Assembly: GCA_002438785.1 (NCBI GenBank)
Contig: DJQS01000011.1
Span: 94,888 to 158,887, forward strand
Origin: Bacillales bacterium UBA6380
Lineage (GTDB): Bacteria > Bacillota_I > Bacilli_A > RFN20 > CAG-826
Length of the DNA stretch: 64,000 nt
Direction: 5' to 3'
Shown: positions 7,741 through 33,536 of the stretch, piece by piece
Layout: each line of letters begins with the position of its first letter
Numbering within the stretch: the stretch's first letter is position 1
Translations under genes and position numbers: made by a program
Notes under the pieces: generated by a model
The model's database searches: none
Told to the model about the DNA's origin: nothing
What the model saw: only the letters and a program-made list of their open reading frames with translations

Positions 7741-10320
7741 TTAAATATTATACGTCAAATAAAAAATATAATTTTTGTAAATTTTTTGATGGCAAACTAA
7801 TTTATATTTATTTAAGTTTAAGTCAAATTCAAACTTAGCAACAACTGTTTTTGTAACACGATCAATCATTTTTATTCGTTTTAATACTTCATTTTCGTTA
7901 TATTCTCCATTGTATTTATAATTATCTTTAGCATAATTAATAATTGCTTCTTCTAATGTTTCATTTTCTTTACCTTCAATATTATTAAGATCATTTCTTT
8001 CCATATTGAGTCCTAGAAAATATTTCTTTTTAAAAATTAAAGTATTATTAATTATGTTTTCATCATGATTAACAAAATTATCTTGATAAGTATTTAAATT
8101 AGAATCAAACAATTTACAAAATAAGTTTGCATGACGATAAAAATAAATGCTAAAACTATCATTTTCATTATAAATTAATAAAATATCATATAATCCTTTA
8201 GCATCATCACTATTTAGTTTAAATAAGGAATGAATATCTCCATTATCAGTTTTGAAATTAACTAAACTAATATAATCCTTTGCTGAAACAAATAAATCAT
8301 CTACATCATAACTATAAACAGTTCCTGATATAGTCGGATTTATAATAACACTAGAATATTCTTGATTATCGATAGATAAAGTGAAATTGCTATTAAAAAC
8401 ATCACTAAATAAAATCATAAAATAATTAGTTTTACTATTCATAAAATTGACATTTTTAGCTAAATAAATATATGGATTTTTTTCATTTAAATCATAATTA
8501 GAATAGGCATAATTATTATTAACTAAGTTACGTCCATATATCGGTTTTTCAAATCTATAAAAGCCATGGCTAGTATCGCTATTATCTTTAATAAATTCAT
8601 TCATCTTATCAATTGAATTATAAGTTAATTCACCATTATTTTCTTTTAAATCGATATTATTAATAATCTTTGGATCGCCTATTTTTTCAAATCCAAAAAC
8701 AACTGGTGAATTATTAATTTGTGGAAAATTAGAAATTAAATCTCTTGAATCAATAAGTTTTATTTTTTTGCCTTTTAAAGATGGATAACCATTTTCACCA
8801 ATTGCCTCATCTATTATTAATTCATAAAAATCATCATAAATTATAGAAGCATTTTCTCTAGTAAAATTAGCTTCAAATAAATATAAATTATAAAGCCCAT
8901 CACCAAATTCAGCTATTAAACTATTATTTATATATTCAGTATCTAATTGATAAATTTGGTACCAATTGCCTGTCCAACTAGATATTCCCTCTCCATAAGC
9001 TAATTCAACACTTAAACTTTTATATAAATTATCTTTATTTAATTTTAAATAATTGTAATTATAATATCTTACATATTTATTTGGACTATTAGTATTATTA
9101 AAATTACCTGAACCACCATTAATTCTTTCACTTGATGGCATAAAATACTTATAAACATTTCTTTTATTAGAGTCATTAAAGCTTTGAACTAATTTAAAGC
9201 AATCTCCCCCACCACTTTCATAACTACTAGCATTATATGTTTTACCATTAGAAAATAATGGGAATAACCTAATTACACCATTTTCATCAGCATATTTCTC
9301 TAAATCTTCAAAAACATCAAAATAATGTGAAATTTCTTTAGCACTATAAGCTTCAGCAATCGGCTGTTTACTTGAATACGTATCCCAATCATTTGGTAAA
9401 TAACTATAAGGAAAGCTATAACTTCCATCATTATTCTTACTTACATATGTCCAGTTAGTAAATGTAAAGTTAAACCATAATTTATGATCGCCCATTGATG
9501 TAAAAACACTTTGAATAGCTTTAGATAATAAATCAATTGACATTGTATTAGTAACTACTAATTTAATTGGGATATATCTTCCTGTATTTGAGGTATTAGC
9601 TTCATCATAACTAATTAAACTAGTCGTATTATTATTTATATAAGTTTCTCCATAATAATAAGATTCTTCCCAAGCTCCAAAACGATCATTGCTAAATAAA
9701 TCGTGACCATTATATCGCTCATTAGTAGTTTCACTTATTGAACCACTAGTACTACTATTAAAAGTCAATGGATCATTAGGAAGGCCATAGTCTCTATTAT
9801 ATTTGTTATATGAATAATAATAGATATCGTTTGAATTGCCACTCGCAGTTCCTCCAATTTCAAATTTATCATTATATAAAAAATATTTATTTATAAATGA
9901 TTTGTATGCACCATCATAAGAGGCATTATTATCATATTTTCCATTATTTTCACTAAGCTTATAAAGAGCCTTACCTTCATCATTTAATAAAACATTACCA
10001 TTTTCATTTGTTAAAACTTCTTTATATCCAAATTCTTCTTCTGGTAAATGATGAGTTCCGTATGTATTAGTTTCATCGACTAAATATCGACCATATAAAA
10101 ACATATAAGCGGTACTAGGAAAGAAATAAATTGTATACGTTTTTTCTTCTTCATCTTTCCCAAATCGATAATTTTCTTTTATATCATCTATTTTAAAATT
10201 ACTTTCAATTTCATTACTTATCTCCTTTTGTTCATTAAAATACCATGCTGAAATACCAAAAGAAGTAACTCCAATTGTTAATGTTGATAAAATAAGTAAT
10301 AATTTATTAAATATTTTCAT
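7741..10320 (-). CDS. large secreted N/Y-rich protein with a SipW-type leader (locus 1, protein P3)
   Basis: 859-aa ORF. N-terminus MKIFNKLLLILSTLTIGVTSFGISAWYF. The start follows the upstream stop within TAAAATG. I recognise no known domain. Confidence 0.8.
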   Translation of the reverse strand: MKIFNKLLLILSTLTIGVTSFGISAWYFNEQKEISNEIESNFKIDDIKENYRFGKDEEEKTYTIYFFPSTAYMFLYGRYLVDETNTYGTHHLPEEEFGYKEVLTNENGNVLLNDEGKALYKLSENNGKYDNNASYDGAYKSFINKYFLYNDKFEIGGTASGNSNDIYYYSYNKYNRDYGLPNDPLTFNSSTSGSISETTNERYNGHDLFSNDRFGAWEESYYYGETYINNNTTSLISYDEANTSNTGRYIPIKLVVTNTMSIDLLSKAIQSVFTSMGDHKLWFNFTFTNWTYVSKNNDGSYSFPYSYLPNDWDTYSSKQPIAEAYSAKEISHYFDVFEDLEKYADENGVIRLFPLFSNGKTYNASSYESGGGDCFKLVQSFNDSNKRNVYKYFMPSSERINGGSGNFNNTNSPNKYVRYYNYNYLKLNKDNLYKSLSVELAYGEGISSWTGNWYQIYQLDTEYINNSLIAEFGDGLYNLYLFEANFTRENASIIYDDFYELIIDEAIGENGYPSLKGKKIKLIDSRDLISNFPQINNSPVVFGFEKIGDPKIINNIDLKENNGELTYNSIDKMNEFIKDNSDTSHGFYRFEKPIYGRNLVNNNYAYSNYDLNEKNPYIYLAKNVNFMNSKTNYFMILFSDVFNSNFTLSIDNQEYSSVIINPTISGTVYSYDVDDLFVSAKDYISLVNFKTDNGDIHSLFKLNSDDAKGLYDILLIYNENDSFSIYFYRHANLFCKLFDSNLNTYQDNFVNHDENIINNTLIFKKKYFLGLNMERNDLNNIEGKENETLEEAIINYAKDNYKYNGEYNENEVLKRIKMIDRVTKTVVAKFEFDLNLNKYKLVCHQKIYKNYIFYLTYNI

Positions 10321-10321
10321 T

Positions 10322-10984
10322 TTAATTTATCCTAAAAGTTATATTGATATTATGATTTTGATTATTATTTATTAATTTATATAAATTTAAATAAGAATCA
10401 TTTGTATTTGGTTTTACATCCATATTTTTATATTGAAATACTTCATTTAAATTTAATTCATAACGAAAACCACCTAATGGATATGTTTCATTGATATCGA
10501 TTTGTTTAATATATTTTTTAAAATCATATCCATCATTAGTGTTAGCATTATGATATTTTGAAGTAATACTAATAAAGTTATTTAACGAATCAGTCAAATT
10601 TCCATTATCTATTTCAATGAATAATGAAGTTGATAAATAATCTAAAGAATCGTTTTTATCAATAATTTCATATTCAATAATAATTTCTGGGTCATTAATA
10701 TAAATCTCATCATTTGTTTGAAAATCATCATTGTGTCTATAAAACTCAATACCATCAGTTAAATCATCTATTTTGCCAACTCCTTCACTAAAAACTATTA
10801 AGTTAGGACATTTAATTATCCTTAAATCACCAGTTTTAATCAACTCGCTAACTTTAATCGTCACATCACTTTCTTGGCTTTTAATTTCATTCGAATCAAA
10901 AAACCAGCTAGAAAAACCAAAACCTAATAACGTAAGTAAGGATGTTAATGGAACAAAAATATAAATAACTTTACGAAAAATCAT
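10322..10984 (-). CDS. secreted 220-aa protein with a SipW-type leader (locus 1, protein P2; paralogue of P1)
   Basis: N-terminus ...LLTLLGFGFSSWFFDSNE. Its ATG overlaps the peptidase stop (ATGA at 10981-10984). The C-terminal region aligns with P1 (NE-x-F-x-Y ... KP-x-T-x-D-x-Y). Confidence 0.8.
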   Translation of the reverse strand: MIFRKVIYIFVPLTSLLTLLGFGFSSWFFDSNEIKSQESDVTIKVSELIKTGDLRIIKCPNLIVFSEGVGKIDDLTDGIEFYRHNDDFQTNDEIYINDPEIIIEYEIIDKNDSLDYLSTSLFIEIDNGNLTDSLNNFISITSKYHNANTNDGYDFKKYIKQIDINETYPLGGFRYELNLNEVFQYKNMDVKPNTNDSYLNLYKLINNNQNHNINITFRIN

Positions 10985-11973
10985 TTTAAATCACCAATTA
11001 TTTTCTTATTATCGTAAGTATTAGCAACTTCCTTAAATCTAAGTTTATATTCTTTTTCAATTGAACTTTCAGAAATGTTAAACGCTATTAAGAAAATAAA
11101 GCAACTACTCAAAGCAACTATTCCTGCACTACTTTTTAAATAAGTTATCAAAACACCTAAACCAAAATTATTAAAACCAGTGTATCTACCAATTATATCT
11201 TCATAATGAACAGCAATTTCATATTTTGCACTACTAGTATTAGCATCACCTTGGAAAGTATAATAATTTTTATTTTCTGCACTATTATAATTTATTCTAA
11301 CTAAGCGATGAACGATAATTTCACCTTCATCATTTTTAAAAGCCACAACATCATATAAATTTAATTTTTTTTCATCTATTTTTTGAATAGAAATTAAACT
11401 GAATCTATTTATTTGATTATTTAAATTATTTTCTTTGATATAAGTGTTTTTCTCATTTGCTTCTTCCATTGAACCAGTTTTAATTACAATATAAGTTTTA
11501 TCCCCAATAAAAAATGCATCATTTTGTACTTTAAAACTTATAATAAAACTAAATAGTAAAGTGAAAATAAATAAAAATGTGAAAGAAAAAATGTAAGATA
11601 TTTTCTTTCTTTTTTTATCTTTCATATCTTCAATATTTAAAACTTTTGCTAATCTTCTTTTATCCTTATCTTCAATATCAGGATGATAATATAAATATGT
11701 TTCAACATTTCTTATTTTAGAAATACATTTAATTTCATTATTTGTTGAATTAACTTTATCAGTACTTATATCAAATTTTTCACCTTTAAAAAGATGTTTA
11801 TATTTAATTATCAATTCTTTTAATAATTTTTCATCTTCATGACCATATTTTATATGCTTCTTTTTATATGAAGCATATAAAATAAATAGAATTGTAAAAG
11901 TTATTGCTAAACCAATAATTGTCAATAAAGCAACATAAAAAACTATTTCAATTAATTGATTGTACCCTTCCAT
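10981..11973 (-). CDS. SipW/ER-type (S26B-like) signal peptidase I with an extra N-terminal TM and charged domain (SipW1)
   Basis: Boxes IKTGSME (catalytic Ser), IIVHRLV (His) and TFQGDAN. TM segments flank the catalytic domain on both sides. GAGG lies upstream of the ATG. Confidence 0.7.
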   Translation of the reverse strand: MEGYNQLIEIVFYVALLTIIGLAITFTILFILYASYKKKHIKYGHEDEKLLKELIIKYKHLFKGEKFDISTDKVNSTNNEIKCISKIRNVETYLYYHPDIEDKDKRRLAKVLNIEDMKDKKRKKISYIFSFTFLFIFTLLFSFIISFKVQNDAFFIGDKTYIVIKTGSMEEANEKNTYIKENNLNNQINRFSLISIQKIDEKKLNLYDVVAFKNDEGEIIVHRLVRINYNSAENKNYYTFQGDANTSSAKYEIAVHYEDIIGRYTGFNNFGLGVLITYLKSSAGIVALSSCFIFLIAFNISESSIEKEYKLRFKEVANTYDNKKIIGDLK

Positions 11974-11992
11974 TATTAACCTCTATAAAATA

Positions 11993-12679
11993 TTATTTAG
12001 CCTTGAATTCAAAAGAATATGCAAAATTTATTAAATTTCCACTTAATTTACTTATACCATTACTATAATCATCTTTAGTCTTTGGCTTACTTGTATATAT
12101 AAAACCTTCATTTACTAAAGTTTCTGAATTAGTATCAACATGGAATGTGAATGTTGAAGTAACATCATTAGTATAATCGTTAGTAATTTCTACTGTTTTT
12201 GTAAATGTTCTAACAAAATCACCAGTAGTATTATCTGTTTTAATATTACTACTAGTTACATTTGTATCATTAAATGAATCTTTAAAATTAATATATTTAG
12301 CTAAATCGCTTTTGATTGTAACTATCGCAGTAAATGTTCCAACTAATCCAGCATTATAAACATTTTCGATATTATCTTTAGTTAAAGTATAAGTAGCACC
12401 TATTGTTTTAACATAATCAGTTCCATTTTTAATACTAATACCAGCATCTAAATTCTCTTTGTTTCTATAACCACCTTGATCTAATATCAAATTATATTTA
12501 GTTGTATCATCAGCAGTAATTGTCCCTAGTTGACTAGCTAATGGCTCTACTATAACGCTAATATCTGAGTTAGCCCCAGCAACTGTATCATTACCAAAAT
12601 ACCAAGCACTAAAGCCACTACCAATAATTGCTAATCCACCAACAGTGGATAATAAAGAAATAAATAATTTTCTTTTCAT
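11993..12679 (-). CDS. secreted beta-rich 228-aa protein with a SipW-type leader (locus 1, protein P1; candidate major subunit)
   Basis: N-terminus MKRKLFISLLSTVGGLAIIGSGFSAWYFGND resembles the TasA leader (...GGGTWA|AFND). First gene of the operon, with a GGGGGA RBS. Confidence 0.8.
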   Translation of the reverse strand: MKRKLFISLLSTVGGLAIIGSGFSAWYFGNDTVAGANSDISVIVEPLASQLGTITADDTTKYNLILDQGGYRNKENLDAGISIKNGTDYVKTIGATYTLTKDNIENVYNAGLVGTFTAIVTIKSDLAKYINFKDSFNDTNVTSSNIKTDNTTGDFVRTFTKTVEITNDYTNDVTSTFTFHVDTNSETLVNEGFIYTSKPKTKDDYSNGISKLSGNLINFAYSFEFKAK

Positions 12680-26913: not shown

Positions 26914-27658
26914 ACGAATTTACCTTATAAATTTCTAATAACCCTTCTAAAACCACATTTTTTTCATAAATAAAGTTATCTAAATGCTTAATAACTGAAT
27001 TAGCATATCCACCAGTAATAATTCTTTTTACTTTATAGCCAAGTTCTAACTCTATTTTATTAGCAAATTCATTAATCATAAAAGCATGCCCTAAAACAAT
27101 ACCTGATTCAATTGAATCTTTAGTATTTTTACCAATAACATTTTTTGGAGCAATTAAAGGAACTTCAATTAATAATGAAGTTGAATTAACTAAAGCATTT
27201 AATGAAATGCCAAGTCCGCTAGTAATAATTCCACCAATAAAATTACCATATTTATCTATTACGTAAATTTTGCTTGCTGTACCTAAATCACATACTAAAC
27301 AAGCTTCTTTAAATTTAGTATAAGCGCCAATTGCGCCAGAAAGCATATCAGCACCTAATTCACTAGGATTGTCAATTTTAATCGCCATCCTAGTTCTAAG
27401 TGATTTTGAAACTATAAGCGAATTTAAAGAAAAAACTTTACTTATTGCTTCTTTTAAAATCAATGTTAATGATGGAACAACTGAACTTATTAATGATCCA
27501 TTTATATTTTTTTCTTTAATAAGTGAAGAAATAATAATTGCATATTCATCACTACTTTTGTTACGATCTGTTTTAACTAAATAAGTATCTACTAACTTAT
27601 TTTTATCAAATAGACCAAGTTTAATCATGGAATTACCACAATCGACAACTAATATCAT
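26903..27658 (-). CDS. coaX: type III pantothenate kinase
   Basis: MILVVDCGNSMIKLG N-terminus and DLGTA and TGG motifs, typical of CoaX. Confidence 0.88.
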   Translation of the reverse strand: MILVVDCGNSMIKLGLFDKNKLVDTYLVKTDRNKSSDEYAIIISSLIKEKNINGSLISSVVPSLTLILKEAISKVFSLNSLIVSKSLRTRMAIKIDNPSELGADMLSGAIGAYTKFKEACLVCDLGTASKIYVIDKYGNFIGGIITSGLGISLNALVNSTSLLIEVPLIAPKNVIGKNTKDSIESGIVLGHAFMINEFANKIELELGYKVKRIITGGYANSVIKHLDNFIYEKNVVLEGLLEIYKVNSYEK

Positions 27659-27741
27659 ATTTTCCTCCTACAAGCTTTAAATATTTTTAAAGTCTCGTGC
27701 TTATTTAATATATACTTTTTAATTAATTTTTACAAATAAAA

Positions 27742-27762
27742 GGAGTAACAAGTTGTTACTCC
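27742..27762 (-). terminator. intrinsic terminator after the second signal-peptidase gene
   Basis: GGAGTAACA-AGT-TGTTACTCC. On the minus strand it is followed by TTTTATTTGT. Confidence 0.75.
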
Positions 27763-27783
27763 TAAATATTTAAGTTTATATAA

Positions 27784-28743
27784 TTATTTAAGTTCTATTA
27801 CTTTAACTTTAGGTAATTTATTAATCTCTTCTTGATTAATTCGATCTTTAACGCTATTAAATTGACTTTCATATAATTTAACTTTTTTATTATCAAATAT
27901 ATCTAAAATAATTAAAGAGAGTAAGGTATATGTAATGCTAACTAAGCCAACATAACTTCCACTAAAAGAAAAGATAATTCCTAATGGATAATTATTATAA
28001 CCAGTATAATGATACAAAATGTCACTACTTTTAACTAAATAATAATCACTTGAACTATTAGCATCACCTCTAAAAGTATAATAAATTTCATTATTTACTT
28101 CTAGCTTAGCAATTACTCTATGAACTATTAGATTATTTTTATTATTTTTATAAGCATATATATCAAATAATTTAATATCATCATTATTATTAACTTTTTC
28201 TAATGAAATTAATGAATACGTTTTTATTTGATCATTTAAATTCATATCTTTAAGATATGAATTTTCTTCATTTTTATAACTCATTGATCCACTATTTATA
28301 GTTACATAAGTTTTATTATTTATTTCATATAAATTATTAGATAACTTTGAATAAACTGTAAAAGAGAATATAAAAATAAAAATTATAGAAAATATAATAT
28401 CAAAAATAATTTTTAATATTATATTTCTTTTTTTATTTTTAACCTTTAAATCATATCTTTTAATATATAAAGGCTTATAATCATTATTTAATGGTGGATT
28501 AGATGCATCAATTGTTAAATTAATTGATTTCTTAGAATTAATTAGCCTATATTCAATAGGTCGATTATCTTTATATTCCTTAATAGACATATTCATATCA
28601 TTTTTATATGTCTTATCTAATTTATTATTCTTTATTTTTTCTTTAAATAAAGAATAATTATCTAAAATAATTAAAAGAATAATTATAAAAATAATTGTTA
28701 ATAATAAAACATTAAGTAATATAGATTGAGTTTGTTTAGTCAT
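27784..28743 (-). CDS. SipW/ER-type signal peptidase I paralogue with the same extended architecture (SipW2)
   Basis: INSGSMS, LIVHRVI and TFRGDAN boxes. TM1, charged region, TM2, catalytic domain and C-terminal TM are colinear with SipW1. Confidence 0.7.
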   Translation of the reverse strand: MTKQTQSILLNVLLLTIIFIIILLIILDNYSLFKEKIKNNKLDKTYKNDMNMSIKEYKDNRPIEYRLINSKKSINLTIDASNPPLNNDYKPLYIKRYDLKVKNKKRNIILKIIFDIIFSIIFIFIFSFTVYSKLSNNLYEINNKTYVTINSGSMSYKNEENSYLKDMNLNDQIKTYSLISLEKVNNNDDIKLFDIYAYKNNKNNLIVHRVIAKLEVNNEIYYTFRGDANSSSDYYLVKSSDILYHYTGYNNYPLGIIFSFSGSYVGLVSITYTLLSLIILDIFDNKKVKLYESQFNSVKDRINQEEINKLPKVKVIELK

Positions 28744-28783
28744 ATTTAAAATTATATTAAAATAATTAAAGGATTAATAGATT

Positions 28784-28927
28784 TTATTTATTATTATTAA
28801 ATCCTATTTCATACTCTAAGTTATTACTATAACTATTATTTGAATTAGTTTTAGTAATAACCCAAGCAGAAATACCTACTCCAATTAATCCTGATAATAA
28901 TATTAAAGTTAATAAGAGTTTTTTCAT
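28784..28927 (-). CDS. unannotated 47-aa ORF with a SipW-type leader plus a single short beta-strand (P5)
   Basis: My own translation is MKKLLLTLILLSGLIGVGISAWVITKTNSNNSYSNNLEYEIGFNNNK*. The leader closely matches that of P3. It starts 7 nt after the 839-aa gene stop. No clear SD. Confidence 0.55.
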   Translation of the reverse strand: MKKLLLTLILLSGLIGVGISAWVITKTNSNNSYSNNLEYEIGFNNNK

Positions 28928-28933
28928 AAGGTG

Positions 28934-31453
28934 TCATTTATATAATTTAATACCAATTATAACAGCTCTTTTTTTATTTGTCGAAATTTCAATAGTTTTA
29001 GTAGGATTGAATGTATAAGCTAAAGTCTTCGACAATGTTTTTCCATCAGTATTTTTATCCATAGACAATGTCACACCATTTACAGTAACATCACAAGTAT
29101 CATTTTTCCATGCATAACCAATTAATTCAATTTTAGAAACTTCTTCTTTAGTTTCAAAAGATAAATTTCCAGCTTTTTTGCTTGTTCCAAGCCTAATACC
29201 ACCTTTAGTATTTGAAGTAAAACCATTTTCAGCATTTATTAAAGAAGTAATCATGCCACTATCGTTAGTAGAAGATTGTAATGCAACATCTAGAAAATTT
29301 TCTTTGCTTATAGATTGCGAATAAATATCTCCACTTATTGTTTCGCTTTCAGCTTCAAATTTATATTCACCAAGCAAAGTATAAGAAGTACCCTCTTCAA
29401 CTTTTAAAAGAAGTTTATTACTAATAACATCATTATATTTAGCAGTTATCTCAGTTTCCCCAACACTTAAAGCATGAATTATTCCATCATTAGAAATGGT
29501 AGCAACACTAGGATTAGATGAACTCCATTCCAAAGTAACATTTATTTGACTTGGATTTGTAGTAACGGTGACTTTTCTATCAGCATCACCTAATTTCATT
29601 GTCATTTCATTTTCAAGCGTAATTGAAGTAGGGACAACATCAACACTTTCATAACTTATAATTACACCATAATAATTATTATATTTACCTTTACTAATTG
29701 TACCAAATACTTGTATTTTTATCTTATAACCAACTTTCATTGCAGGAGTAGGATCATCACCTTTTTTAAAATCATAGCTATATTTGTACTCAGTATAACT
29801 TAATGATTTATTATCATTATTTTCAATACGTGATCCATAAATTACTAATTTATTATTATTTGAATCAACTAAAGTAAATCTACCATATTCAGCTTTTTCA
29901 ATTGAATAAACAGTACCTTCAACTTCATAAAGGTGGGTAGAATCATAAGTAGTATCGGATAAAACTTTTTCAATAGTAGATTGAATAGGTTTACTTAAAT
30001 CAATAACTTCATAGCCAATTACATAAGCTCCTTCTTGTTCTACTTTAAATGAATAATCCTCTAAATAAACTTTATCACCACCATTTAAAGTGTAATAAAC
30101 TTTACTTAATTCATAACCTTCATTTGCTTTAACAGTAAAACTTATAGATGAACCTAATTGATATTTACTATCTTCTTTAGCATCGGTTATAGTAACTTCT
30201 GCACCAGTTAATGTATCATCAATATTGATAGTAACAGTCTTAACTGGTTCTTCTTTCTTACTAACTTCTAATTTAAAAACATTTTCACCTTCTAATAATG
30301 TAAAGTATTCTTCAGTTAGTTTAGTTTCGTTTAAATAAGCTACATAACTAAATCCATCATCAACTGTAACTTTATAAGTAACCTTACTACCGACATTATA
30401 TTCTTCATTTAATTTAAGCTCAGTACCTTTATCATCAAGAAATTTAACTGTAGCGTGTTCAACATCGTTATATAAAATGCTACCTTTTTTAACTTCATCA
30501 ACTAATTCATATTTAAATTTATAATTTACACCTTCTAAGAAATTGTAACTTCCTTCGTAAGTATAACCTTTATTTGTAGCTCTAGTTGTAGAAGCTACTT
30601 TCTTCATACTAACTTTATCTTCATTTATATAAATTACATCATCTTTAAGTAATTTTCCTTCATCTAAAGTTAAAGTTAAACTATGTTCTCCAGTAACTAA
30701 TTTATTATCTTTTAATCCTTCAATAGTTAAACTAGATCCACTAATTTCAGGTAAAGTAATTTCACCTGTTAATTTTTCAACAGGTTTAACTTCACTACTT
30801 CCACCAAGTTGAATAGTATATCTAAAAGCAACACCATCAAAAGCTTTAACTAAACTTTCAAAATTTTTAACTTGCTCTTCTTTAGCTAAATCTTTCCAAA
30901 CAATTTGTGGATTATTTCCTAATTTTTCACTCCAAGAGAAAGTAAATGTATAAGGATATCCATCATTTTCATATTGAGCATCAAGCCAAGTTTTATAATT
31001 AATTGTGCTATCAATAGGCAAAGCAATATAACTTAATAAATTCTCTAACCTAGTTCCTTCTAAAGCTTTCTTTGTTTCTTTATCAATAGCCTCAGTTTTA
31101 ATAACTAAATTAGGTCGATATTGTTCACTAACTAAATCCCAGTACTTATCTTTTAAAGCTTGATAAGGAGAAACATTTAATCCGCCATCTTTTTTAACAC
31201 CTTTAATTAAATAAGATTTAGATAAATTTTCTTCACCATAATATTCTTTAGGTGCATCAAATTTAATTTTTTCATTAGTATCTTTTTCTTTAACTTCCAA
31301 ATCAAAGTCGCTATTTCCAACTGTAGTGATTTCAAAAGGAATTTCACCATCTTTTGAAGTAAAGCCTCCATTAACTGTCCAAGTAGCATAAGCAGTTCCG
31401 ATTAAACTTCCGACACTAAGAACACCTATAAGTAATTTACCAACCTTTTTCAT
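28934..31453 (-). CDS. large secreted multi-domain surface protein with a SipW-type leader and a Big_2 domain (P4)
   Basis: N-terminus MKKVGKLLIGVLSVGSLIGTAYATWTV. GGGAGG RBS. Contains repeated Ig-like segments, an OB-like segment (aa ~508-602) and a Big_2-like segment (SSSNPSVATISNDGIIHALSVGETEITA). Confidence 0.85.
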   Translation of the reverse strand: MKKVGKLLIGVLSVGSLIGTAYATWTVNGGFTSKDGEIPFEITTVGNSDFDLEVKEKDTNEKIKFDAPKEYYGEENLSKSYLIKGVKKDGGLNVSPYQALKDKYWDLVSEQYRPNLVIKTEAIDKETKKALEGTRLENLLSYIALPIDSTINYKTWLDAQYENDGYPYTFTFSWSEKLGNNPQIVWKDLAKEEQVKNFESLVKAFDGVAFRYTIQLGGSSEVKPVEKLTGEITLPEISGSSLTIEGLKDNKLVTGEHSLTLTLDEGKLLKDDVIYINEDKVSMKKVASTTRATNKGYTYEGSYNFLEGVNYKFKYELVDEVKKGSILYNDVEHATVKFLDDKGTELKLNEEYNVGSKVTYKVTVDDGFSYVAYLNETKLTEEYFTLLEGENVFKLEVSKKEEPVKTVTINIDDTLTGAEVTITDAKEDSKYQLGSSISFTVKANEGYELSKVYYTLNGGDKVYLEDYSFKVEQEGAYVIGYEVIDLSKPIQSTIEKVLSDTTYDSTHLYEVEGTVYSIEKAEYGRFTLVDSNNNKLVIYGSRIENNDNKSLSYTEYKYSYDFKKGDDPTPAMKVGYKIKIQVFGTISKGKYNNYYGVIISYESVDVVPTSITLENEMTMKLGDADRKVTVTTNPSQINVTLEWSSSNPSVATISNDGIIHALSVGETEITAKYNDVISNKLLLKVEEGTSYTLLGEYKFEAESETISGDIYSQSISKENFLDVALQSSTNDSGMITSLINAENGFTSNTKGGIRLGTSKKAGNLSFETKEEVSKIELIGYAWKNDTCDVTVNGVTLSMDKNTDGKTLSKTLAYTFNPTKTIEISTNKKRAVIIGIKLYK

Positions 31454-31569
31454 TAAGAATCCTCCCTTTTAGCAAATGTTTAATAAATTAAATCGTTAAA
31501 AAAGTAATATAAAAAACTCAGATAAAAATTCTCTTTCTAAACATATTTTATAAAACTTTTCATGAATTT

Positions 31570-31580
31570 ATAATATCACA
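31570..31580 (-). promoter_or_regulatory. candidate extended -10 promoter element for locus 2
   Basis: Minus strand reads TGTGATATTAT (TRTGn + TATTAT), ~115 nt upstream of the P4 start. The -35 is weak. Confidence 0.35.
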
Positions 31581-31616
31581 TCTGTATTTTGAAATGAAAA
31601 TATATTTATTAAAAAG

Positions 31617-31633
31617 TTGTAAATAAATTGTAA
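31617..31633. promoter_or_regulatory. TTGTAA-N5-TTGTAA direct repeat (11-bp period), related to the locus 1 repeats
   Basis: TTGTAA at 31617 and 31628. TTGTAA is the reverse complement of TTACAA, which occurs in the locus 1 distal site. Confidence 0.25.
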
Positions 31634-31728
31634 TATGTTTTCGTTAATCATTAACACATTAAGATATCAACTAATAGTTAAATTCAAAAAAATATTTAAC
31701 TTCTAAAGACTTTTTATAAAAAATTAGA

Positions 31729-32424
31729 TTATTTTATTTTACTTAACTTAATTAATTTATCTATTAAATTAGTAATTATATAAAATATTGGTATAATTAA
31801 AAATATAACCCAACTAGGACTCCAACCATTAAAAGTATTTGTATATGTTCCATATAATCCTATAATTAAATAAATACTAATAACTAAAAATACGATATTA
31901 AAACGTCTTATATCTTTATAAATATAGCAATCATAAATACTACTTGGTAAAAACCCAATAAAAAAGATAGGCCAAAATACAAAAAATCCAAGATTATTCT
32001 TATTTAGTATTAATCCTAATACTAAATAAATAATAAATATTATAAGCAAAGAAATAGATAAAACTAAAGAACTAATCAAACGTTGTTTTTTCTTTTTATT
32101 ATAAAATTTATAAAAACTCTCTTTACCAAAATGTACTTTTTTATCTCTAGGAGCTTTAAATTTAACCTCTTCTTCAATTATAACATCATCATTGCGTTTA
32201 CTTAAAATATCATCTATTTTTTTATTAGTATCAATTAAATCACTTATAGAAACATGGTAAATATTAGCTAATTCATGAAGTTGATCATAAGTTAAATCAA
32301 CCTCTCCTTCTTCAATTTTAATAATAAGATCAGAACTAATATTTAATAAATTAGCTAATTCATTAATACTATAACCAAACTCTTCTCTAAATTCTTTTAA
32401 TCGATTTCCAAGTAATTTATCCAT
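31729..32424 (-). CDS. XRE-family HTH protein fused to a 4-TM membrane domain
   Basis: N-terminal HTH (LKEFREEFGYSINELANLLNISSDLIIKIEEG) followed by several hydrophobic segments. Confidence 0.75.
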   Translation of the reverse strand: MDKLLGNRLKEFREEFGYSINELANLLNISSDLIIKIEEGEVDLTYDQLHELANIYHVSISDLIDTNKKIDDILSKRNDDVIIEEEVKFKAPRDKKVHFGKESFYKFYNKKKKQRLISSLVLSISLLIIFIIYLVLGLILNKNNLGFFVFWPIFFIGFLPSSIYDCYIYKDIRRFNIVFLVISIYLIIGLYGTYTNTFNGWSPSWVIFLIIPIFYIITNLIDKLIKLSKIK

Positions 32425-32453
32425 ATATCTATATTATTATATTTAAAATAATT

Positions 32454-33536
32454 TTATTGAATAGGTTTTCTAAAAAATTTTCCATAAACTTGTTCCATTG
32501 GAACAACATTAATAAAAACACTAGGATCAATTTCTTTTGTAATTCTAATTACCTTTTTTACTTCACTTTTCCTTACAGCAATATCGATAATAAATAAATC
32601 TTTACCACTATAACCACCTTTCCCTTGAATAATAGTACATCCATGAGGAATCGCAGCAATAATTGCTTGAGATAAATTATAATTAGGAGTGATGATTTTC
32701 ATTTCATATTTTTTATTAGTCGTATTAATTGTATCAACTACTAGCGAAACAACTATCATATATAAAATAGTGAATAAGAAAATAATAATTGCTGTAGGAA
32801 CTTCTACTCTACCTAAACCACCACTATCTGGAAATAACTTCTCATTTAATGGTAAAACAGATAAAATCGAGTAGACAGTCACAACAATTAAATTTAAAAA
32901 AGCACTCCATTTTCCAATTTGAACAGATTTTCTTTCACTAATATAAAAAGCAATAATATCTGTTCCTCCAGCTGTAGTATCAATAATATAAGCTAAAGCA
33001 GCAGCAATACCTGTACACATTCCAGCAAATAAAACTCTAGCTACAGTTTCTGTTGCCATTTTCGCACTTATTAAATTAATAATATTATTCGGATCATCAC
33101 TTTTAATCAAAATACCAAAGATAGAAGCAAAAATAACATTTAATAAAGAATAAATAGCAAATTTTTTACCGACTTTAAAAAATCCCAAGAAAAATAAAGG
33201 AATATTAACTAATAAATAAAAACACCAATATACAATATTATAATTAATATCACTACTCATAAATTCAAAACCGCATAATTTTAAAATAGTTGCTAAAGAT
33301 TGAGAAATTCCACTAGCTCCACAACTTGCTAAATGTTTAATGGTTGCTTCATTAGCAATACTAGGATCAATCGCTTGAAAATTTGGTTGTATAAAGCAAT
33401 TAAATCCAAAGGCAAAAACAATTCCACTTAACGCAGTTATAAAAACCATATAACTATTCTTAATTATTGAATTCAAAATAGGGTGATCAAATAAATAATT
33501 TTTAATGTTTTTCTTAAATTTTATAAATTTATACAT
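32454..33536 (-). CDS. YitT-family membrane protein (DUF161/DUF2179)
   Basis: Polytopic N-terminal part plus a soluble C-terminal domain, with YitT-like size and layout. Confidence 0.65.
   Translation of the reverse strand: MYKFIKFKKNIKNYLFDHPILNSIIKNSYMVFITALSGIVFAFGFNCFIQPNFQAIDPSIANEATIKHLASCGASGISQSLATILKLCGFEFMSSDINYNIVYWCFYLLVNIPLFFLGFFKVGKKFAIYSLLNVIFASIFGILIKSDDPNNIINLISAKMATETVARVLFAGMCTGIAAALAYIIDTTAGGTDIIAFYISERKSVQIGKWSAFLNLIVVTVYSILSVLPLNEKLFPDSGGLGRVEVPTAIIIFLFTILYMIVVSLVVDTINTTNKKYEMKIITPNYNLSQAIIAAIPHGCTIIQGKGGYSGKDLFIIDIAVRKSEVKKVIRITKEIDPSVFINVVPMEQVYGKFFRKPIQ

Follow-up and report, generated by a model that had tools for sequence, protein, structure and literature searches.

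Organisation of the P4 locus

The window, i.e. the whole stretch of 64,000 nucleotides analysed here, comes from Bacillales bacterium UBA6380 and has a G+C content of about 25%. On its minus strand the gene of a large surface protein, P4, is followed by a small ORF and then by the gene of a putative SipW-like signal peptidase. The features assigned to this locus are listed below.

28934..31453, minus strand: P4, predicted secreted multidomain surface protein of 839 aa (strong Shine-Dalgarno sequence; Pfam, AF2 and Foldseek)
31310..31384, minus strand: P4 N-terminal extension, residues 24-48, TWTVNGGFTSKDGEIPFEITTVGNS (alignment with the small proteins)
30749..31309, minus strand: P4 N-domain core, residues 49-235, alpha/beta, no known family (densest invariant columns of alignments A2/A3)
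28956..28984, minus strand: promoter-like site TCGACA-17-TGtTATAAT within the 3' end of P4, 28 nt upstream of the small ORF
28784..28927, minus strand: small ORF, 47 aa plus stop, belonging to a conserved family of 45-70 aa
28868..28927, minus strand: leader of the small protein, residues 1-20, MKKLLLTLILLSGLIGVGIS (alignment of 15 orthologues)
28787..28867, minus strand: predicted mature peptide, 27 aa, AWVITKTNSNNSYSNNLEYEIGFNNNK, collinear with mature residues 1-32 of P4-like proteins
27784..28743, minus strand: putative SipW-like (archaeal/ER-type) signal peptidase I, 319 aa (NCBIfam, invariant residues)
27741..27763, minus strand: terminator-like hairpin with T-run, after the SipW-like gene

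The small ORF runs on the minus strand from ATG 28927-28925 to TAA 28786-28784 and its product is exactly MKKLLLTLILLSGLIGVGISAWVITKTNSNNSYSNNLEYEIGFNNNK, with TNSNNSYSNNLEYEIGFNNNK (or AWVITK) as predicted tryptic peptide. The original prediction, made from the letters of the window, had described this ORF at 28784-28927, and both its position and its translation were found as claimed. It had also placed the start 7 nt after the P4 stop; the ORF does open after this stop (TGA 28936-28934), and the measured spacing is 6 nt. P4 and the small ORF share a reading frame, with TGA-CAC-CTT between them (28928-28936, minus strand), and the corresponding gaps are in frame at 8 of 11 loci. Downstream, 40 nt separate the stop codon from the 319-aa SipW-like ORF (27784-28743). 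A Shine-Dalgarno search upstream of the small ORF gave none, in agreement with the earlier reading, and the SipW-like gene also has no such sequence; clear ones precede 23 of the 46 genes in the window, P4 among them (GGGAGG). The promoter-like site at 28984-28956 is near-consensus with an extended -10 and was found in the window only; an own promoter as a feature of the family was rejected, the site being absent from all relatives. The terminator-like site was the sole one found in 27400-32600 and probably marks the end of a P4-small ORF-sipW transcription unit. Directly upstream of P4 (31729-32424, minus strand) lies a gene for an XRE-type HTH protein with a C-terminal multi-TM region and weak NCBIfam similarity to SlrR (E = 5e-4), which is present in the same-species locus L047 and for which there is no room in L004.

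P4 is built of a leader, a 25-aa N-terminal extension, an N-domain, Ig-like domains including Big_2 (Pfam E = 1e-10) and a C-terminal CBM-like domain. AF2 models were computed with alignments of 12-13 close homologues only. In the full-length model residues 1-226 are below pLDDT 50, while the cropped model of residues 24-235 (pLDDT 69, pTM 0.65) has a confident alpha/beta core, most of 49-235 lying at pLDDT 76-93. In the cropped model no secondary structure is assigned to the first 25 mature residues, whose pLDDT is 27-34; this fits a flexible N-terminal extension as the P4 segment paralleled by the small protein, low model confidence being no proof of flexibility. The N-domain had no match in Pfam or PDB sequence profile searches and no Foldseek match at E ≤ 1e-3; the comparison with the TasA fibre 8aur_A gave E = 0.42 and TM 0.19 with a query model of moderate quality (pLDDT 69). 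A TasA-like P4 (TasA/camelysin, Peptidase_M73) was rejected since Pfam, PDB profile and Foldseek searches were all negative, the structural part being weakly informative with such a model. Over its length the AF2 model of P4 resembles Ig-like, S-layer-like and CBM36/56-like structures, suggesting a surface protein of Ig/CBM type or an S-layer-like one. The middle of P4 is modelled as a string of Ig-like domains resembling those of the S-layer proteins Sap, EA1 and SbsC, and its C-terminal domain (28934-29600, minus strand) as CBM36/CBM56-like.

The 319-aa protein has an N-terminal extension of about 110 aa containing a TM segment. It was matched by the NCBIfam SipW model with E = 1.6e-14 (54 bits, below the curated cutoff of 190) and by TIGR02228 with E = 6e-10 (39 bits, below the curated cutoff of 52), and S153 (SGSM), H208 (HR), D227 and D233 are invariant in 16 homologues (alignment A1). 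It is a putative divergent SipW/archaeal-type signal peptidase I, with S153 and H208 as the presumed catalytic residues. In contig L019 (447-1490) a 347-aa protein has a C-terminal half 98% identical to this protein and an unrelated N-terminal half, with no small ORF upstream; this contig is 1.6 kb long at about 1.7x coverage and may be a chimera.

A second cluster at 7741-12679 (minus strand) encodes P1 (228 aa), another SipW-like protein (330 aa), P2 (220 aa) and P3 (859 aa). The leaders of this cluster end in G-F/I-S-[AS]-W-x-F and the proteins have no Pfam domains. Such P1-SipW2-P2-P3 clusters are widespread in gut Bacilli/Mollicutes MAGs (L014-L018, L021-L038) and far commoner than the P4 type, and the small ORF was never found in them.

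Conservation of the small ORF and its leader

Related loci were collected through the SipW-like neighbour from species genomes, metagenomes and contigs encoding individual homologues, and the syntenic orthologues used were L001-L010, L012, L013 and L041-L047. An ORF of 45-70 aa beginning with MKK occupies the same slot in all 16 related lineages inspected, 2-18 nt after the stop of the large gene and 14-54 nt before sipW, although outside the window's own species the SipW proteins of these lineages are only 35-66% identical to that of the window. The three alleles inside the window's species each have the ORF intact. The chance of an open stretch of 47 codons is about 0.01 at the base composition of the window, which agrees with the earlier statement that the ORF is unlikely to be accidental; the decisive evidence is its syntenic conservation at every related locus.

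Sequence searches recovered little of this family. A direct protein search with the 47-aa query gave one 47-aa protein (96% identical), single-sequence searches with this query gave very close family members only, and a HMMER scan of 1.84 billion representative proteins added two further small clusters, three in total. A metagenome scan for more examples yielded almost only P1-SipW2-P2-P3 clusters without the small ORF. The ORF was annotated in 3 of 9 contigs and skipped by the gene callers in the other 6.

Pairwise dN/dS of the small ORF was 0.05-0.86, that is below 1, and the leader was its most constrained part: between L003 and L004 the leader has 0/45 non-synonymous against 4/15 synonymous changes. 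The conservation and dN/dS checks proposed with the original prediction therefore both came out for the ORF, with the short length kept in 16/16 lineages. Its alternative suggestion, a stump left from a deleted paralogue, is wrong if a recent event is meant, since no relative inspected has a full-length gene at this position and the short form is constrained. Judged from these comparisons, the short form is ancient and under constraint, and the small ORF is a real, conserved and usually unannotated gene of uncultured gut Bacilli.

Several relatives differ in the genes around the ORF. L005 (2666-7750), L042 (1-4298) and L044 (394-4294) have 2-3 tandem P4-like paralogues with a single small ORF downstream. 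In L045 (1256-4305) the P4-like gene is apparently split into ORFs of 319 aa (N-terminal) and 428 aa (C-terminal) lying some 800 nt apart, with sipW and the small ORF intact. A near-identical strain (L001, 1-2640, and L002, with the same junction at window position ~28951) keeps the small ORF and sipW, and everything upstream of the final 17 nt of P4 gives way there to higher-GC DNA encoding DUF5688 and other proteins on the opposite strand; the junction may stem from an insertion or a replacement, or from chimeric assembly at low coverage. Read-through of the P4 stop or use of genetic code 4 was rejected, as the gaps in relatives are 2, 3, 6, 9, 15 and 18 nt, the same-species L047 has TAA in place of TGA, and Trp is encoded by TGG.

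The leader consists of the n-region MKK, a 17-residue h-region and a G-x-G-x-S c-region, and its length and G-x-G pattern equal those of the P4 leader. The family consensus is MKKLLL.LL.LS.L[IV]G.G.[SA], and the leader motif is restricted to proteins of the clusters. Cleavage is predicted at S20↓A21-W22 (the arrow marks the cleaved bond) from the -3/-1 rule and from the equivalent position of the TasA site A27↓A28-F29 (PMC9674648). The likeness to TasA is at motif level only, with G-x-G-x-[SA]↓[AS]-W here and G-G-G-T-W-A↓A-F in TasA. Local alignment scores of the leader were 57 with P3, 47 with P1, 45 with P4 and 37 with P2; P3 had been named as the closest leader and is so by a small margin. 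A scan of the small protein and P1-P4 against NCBIfam (E ≤ 0.1) listed no SipW-cognate signal model, which we take to be TIGR04088 (SipW-dependent-type signal peptide) and presume to be included in that library. The A-W following the predicted site is replaced by I-R in two lineages, L008 (7740-7925) and L012 (7804-7986), whose leaders are variant, that of L008 with Cys at -1. In L013 (5384-5596) a lipobox-like L-A-G-C stands ahead of S-A-W in the leader. The small proteins of L013, L008 and L012 have long, strongly acidic tails.

Resemblance of the mature peptide to the P4 N-terminal extension

The mature core of the family reads [AS]-W-x-[IVL]-[ST], about 10 polar residues, [IVL]-x-P-x-[IV]-G-[DF], followed by a short variable tail that is N/T-rich or strongly acidic depending on the lineage. 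The matching pattern in the large proteins is G-T-G-[YVF]-A↓[AT]-W-x-[IV]-x-G-G ... [IVL]-x-P-x-[IV], and the alignment of the small proteins with their large neighbours is collinear from the leader to mature residue 20-30. Profile-profile comparison of the mature parts (hhalign) gave P = 2e-4 over positions 1-32 without gaps. When mature parts of own-genome pairs were compared with shuffles, z reached up to 7.7 and the combined Fisher P over 12 lineages was 4e-8. Examples of such pairs are RHVSG and WHISGG (L008 and L012), SKDGTIDYEI and SNDGEIPFEI (L003), and TSHSEFVEP and TSHTEEAEP (L013), the small protein being given first.

The two partners also co-vary. The small protein is nearer to the large protein of its own genome or clade than to those of other genomes (permutation p = 1e-4), the resemblance of the mature parts follows SipW identity (Mantel test, p = 0.0012), and no own-genome signal was found in the leader (p = 0.63). 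In L013 the codon is shared at 2 of 9 identical residues; since the codons mostly differ, the resemblance is maintained at the protein level. Recent gene conversion from P4 was ruled out by the DNA identity of the matching segments, about 51%, and by the differing codons for identical residues. It had been proposed that the mature part repeats the N-termini of the large proteins: this holds across the family (P = 4e-8), whereas the window's own pair is among the weakest (shuffle z = -0.9, rank 12/15). Mimicry of the N-terminal segment of the major protein by the mature N-terminus is thus a property of the family that is weak in the window pair. On the basis of synteny and of co-variation in relatives, the relevant partner is P4, the adjacent gene, and not P3.

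Candidate roles of the small protein

The closest known parallel is TapA (YqxM) of Bacillus subtilis. TasA polymerises by completion of the fold of one subunit with the N-terminal strand of another, and TapA, whose N-terminus resembles this donor strand, has been suggested to provide the initial strand (PMC9674648). TapA is of low abundance, acting as a catalyst, and its gene overlaps sipW (PMC10151520). A strain with tapA 1-57, from which only residues 44-57 are secreted after leader cleavage, forms normal biofilms, so that the engineered TapA(1-57), a leader plus 14 residues, is sufficient (PMC10151520; bioRxiv 10.1101/794164). Like TapA, the small ORF adjoins sipW in the operon of a major secreted protein, lying between P4 and the SipW-like gene in 16/16 lineages, and its product has a SipW-type leader and a mature N-terminus resembling the N-terminal segment of the major protein. 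Like TapA(1-57), it is a leader plus a short peptide, likely of low stoichiometry; the strong Shine-Dalgarno sequence of P4 against none for the small ORF and sipW matches the low abundance reported for TapA and SipW relative to TasA (PMC10151520). The differences are considerable. The small protein is naturally 45-70 aa long and has neither a V-set Ig domain (TapA residues 71-190) nor a C-terminal region, the gene order is major protein, small ORF, sipW as opposed to tapA-sipW-tasA, and the partner is an Ig/CBM protein of 700-1065 aa with a novel N-domain as opposed to the 26-kDa TasA jellyroll. No TapA or related model was found for the small ORF in Pfam and NCBIfam at E ≤ 0.1. With no homology and no Ig domain, the small ORF is by these comparisons not a member of the TapA family.

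Completion of another subunit's fold by an N-terminal extension is also the concept of the chaperone-usher Fim/Pap and type V pili. In Gram-negative donor-strand pili dedicated minor components start or end the chain. Unlike the small protein, these initiators and terminators are full pilin domains or chaperones and have no evolutionary relationship to it, and we know of no natural stand-alone gene product in these pili that consists of the strand only.

The reading we favour, although we put it somewhat short of an even chance, is that the small ORF encodes a SipW-processed mimic of the P4 N-terminal extension, a TapA-like factor priming or capping P4. The small protein would be exported; its ORF would share a transcript with P4 and the SipW-like gene, and its low-level translation would come from ribosomes re-initiating past the P4 stop. 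Cutting of the leader at G-x-S↓A-W by the dedicated SipW-like peptidase would free some 25-45 residues, in whose conserved core the flexible extension of mature P4 is copied (A/T-W-x-I/V ... I/V-x-P-x-I/V). As the peptide presents this extension without any folded domain, it could fill the place where a P4 extension normally docks, on the P4 N-domain or on a partner, and the first subunit would be primed for assembly or attachment, or capped. Cleavage by SipW, binding to P4 and the effect on assembly are steps that we infer; with its good precedent, the donor-strand idea may be considered the best available hypothesis. In its favour count the fixed synteny, the constraint on the ORF, the restriction of the leader motif to cluster proteins, the similarity and co-variation of the mature part with the P4 N-terminus, the unstructured P4 segment that it copies and the contrast in Shine-Dalgarno sequences. 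Against it weigh the faint resemblance within the window's own pair, the negative TasA comparisons of the P4 N-domain together with the Ig/CBM or S-layer-like character of P4, the NCBIfam scan that listed no SipW-cognate signal model, and the I-R of L008 and L012. A more doubtful proposal, which we hold to be possible though on balance unlikely, is that of a strand-only minimal assembly factor, in which a SipW-exported P4-type extension nucleates, caps or membrane-tethers the large protein in putatively wall-reduced gut Bacilli.

The same segment could act without being released. If the leader stayed uncleaved as a type-II anchor, the 25-residue outer segment would hold P4 or a P4 polymer at the membrane, which corresponds to the 'anchoring' half of the role proposed for TapA, with the extension-binding site occupied. 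The hydrophobic stretch LLLTLILLSGLIGVGISAWVI of about 21 residues is long enough to cross the membrane, P4 would otherwise be released once SipW cleaves it, the relatives are labelled 'Mollicutes bacterium' (NCBI), and the co-variation evidence fits equally. However, the G-x-G-x-[SA]↓[AS]-W c-region of the large, presumably cleaved proteins is kept in 13 of 15 lineages and the h-region has the length of that of P4, so we consider such a tether unlikely. Distinctly unlikely, in our estimation, is a regulatory upstream ORF for sipW, serving either for coupling or, in the manner of SecM/MifM/VemP, as a secretion-monitoring leader peptide; its translation or export status would set SipW synthesis. 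A signal-peptide N-terminus directly upstream of an export-pathway gene is indeed what the small ORF shares with SecM, MifM and VemP. Moreover, sipW has no Shine-Dalgarno sequence and starts 14-54 nt past the small-ORF stop, so that ribosomes probably have to complete the small ORF for sipW to be translated. Compared with these leader peptides the small protein is much shorter, has no arrest motif and no structure masking the ribosome-binding site, and its mature part parallels a neighbouring structural protein. With 45-51 aa in 9 lineages, its leader cannot leave the ribosome tunnel before termination; the C-terminus, where an arrest motif is lacking, is the least conserved part; no RNA structure was found around the sipW start (fold z = -0.31), a score on which an attenuator RNA was likewise rejected; and the tracking of the P4 N-terminus by the mature part would be left unexplained.

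An independent secreted peptide, for example an antimicrobial, a signal or a component of the matrix, having only the SipW export route in common with the other proteins, would account for a leader with a short polar mature part and for a tail that is N/T-rich or strongly acidic by lineage. We regard it as very unlikely, since the conserved part is the N-proximal P4-like core and not the tail, and the ORF occurs strictly with P4-type clusters, the P1-SipW2-P2-P3 clusters, which are far commoner, lacking it. Hardly credible, and already strongly disfavoured, is that the ORF is spurious or a functionless remnant left when the 5' end of P4 was partly duplicated. Homology to the first ~45 codons of P4-like genes, the missing Shine-Dalgarno sequence and the frequent omission by gene callers would fit a remnant, but it would not be expected to stay intact with the same start context across 16 lineages at 35-66% SipW identity, with dN/dS below 1, a nearly invariant leader, and retention by all three alleles of the window's species.

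In conclusion, the comparisons reveal a conserved small-protein family that standard gene callers overlook (absent from 6/9 annotated contigs). If the favoured reading is true, the small ORF would be the first natural gene encoding only an export leader and a donor/extension segment, and N-terminal strand donation as in TapA/TasA would extend to an unrelated large surface protein, TapA-like donor mimicry having evolved independently for a non-TasA fold. This would bear on the question in B. subtilis of why TapA has 253 aa though 57 suffice. The three genes would also provide a compact system for testing SipW specificity and extension-mediated assembly or anchoring, and the finding would be relevant to abundant but uncultured gut Bacilli, relatives of Candidatus Onthovivens.
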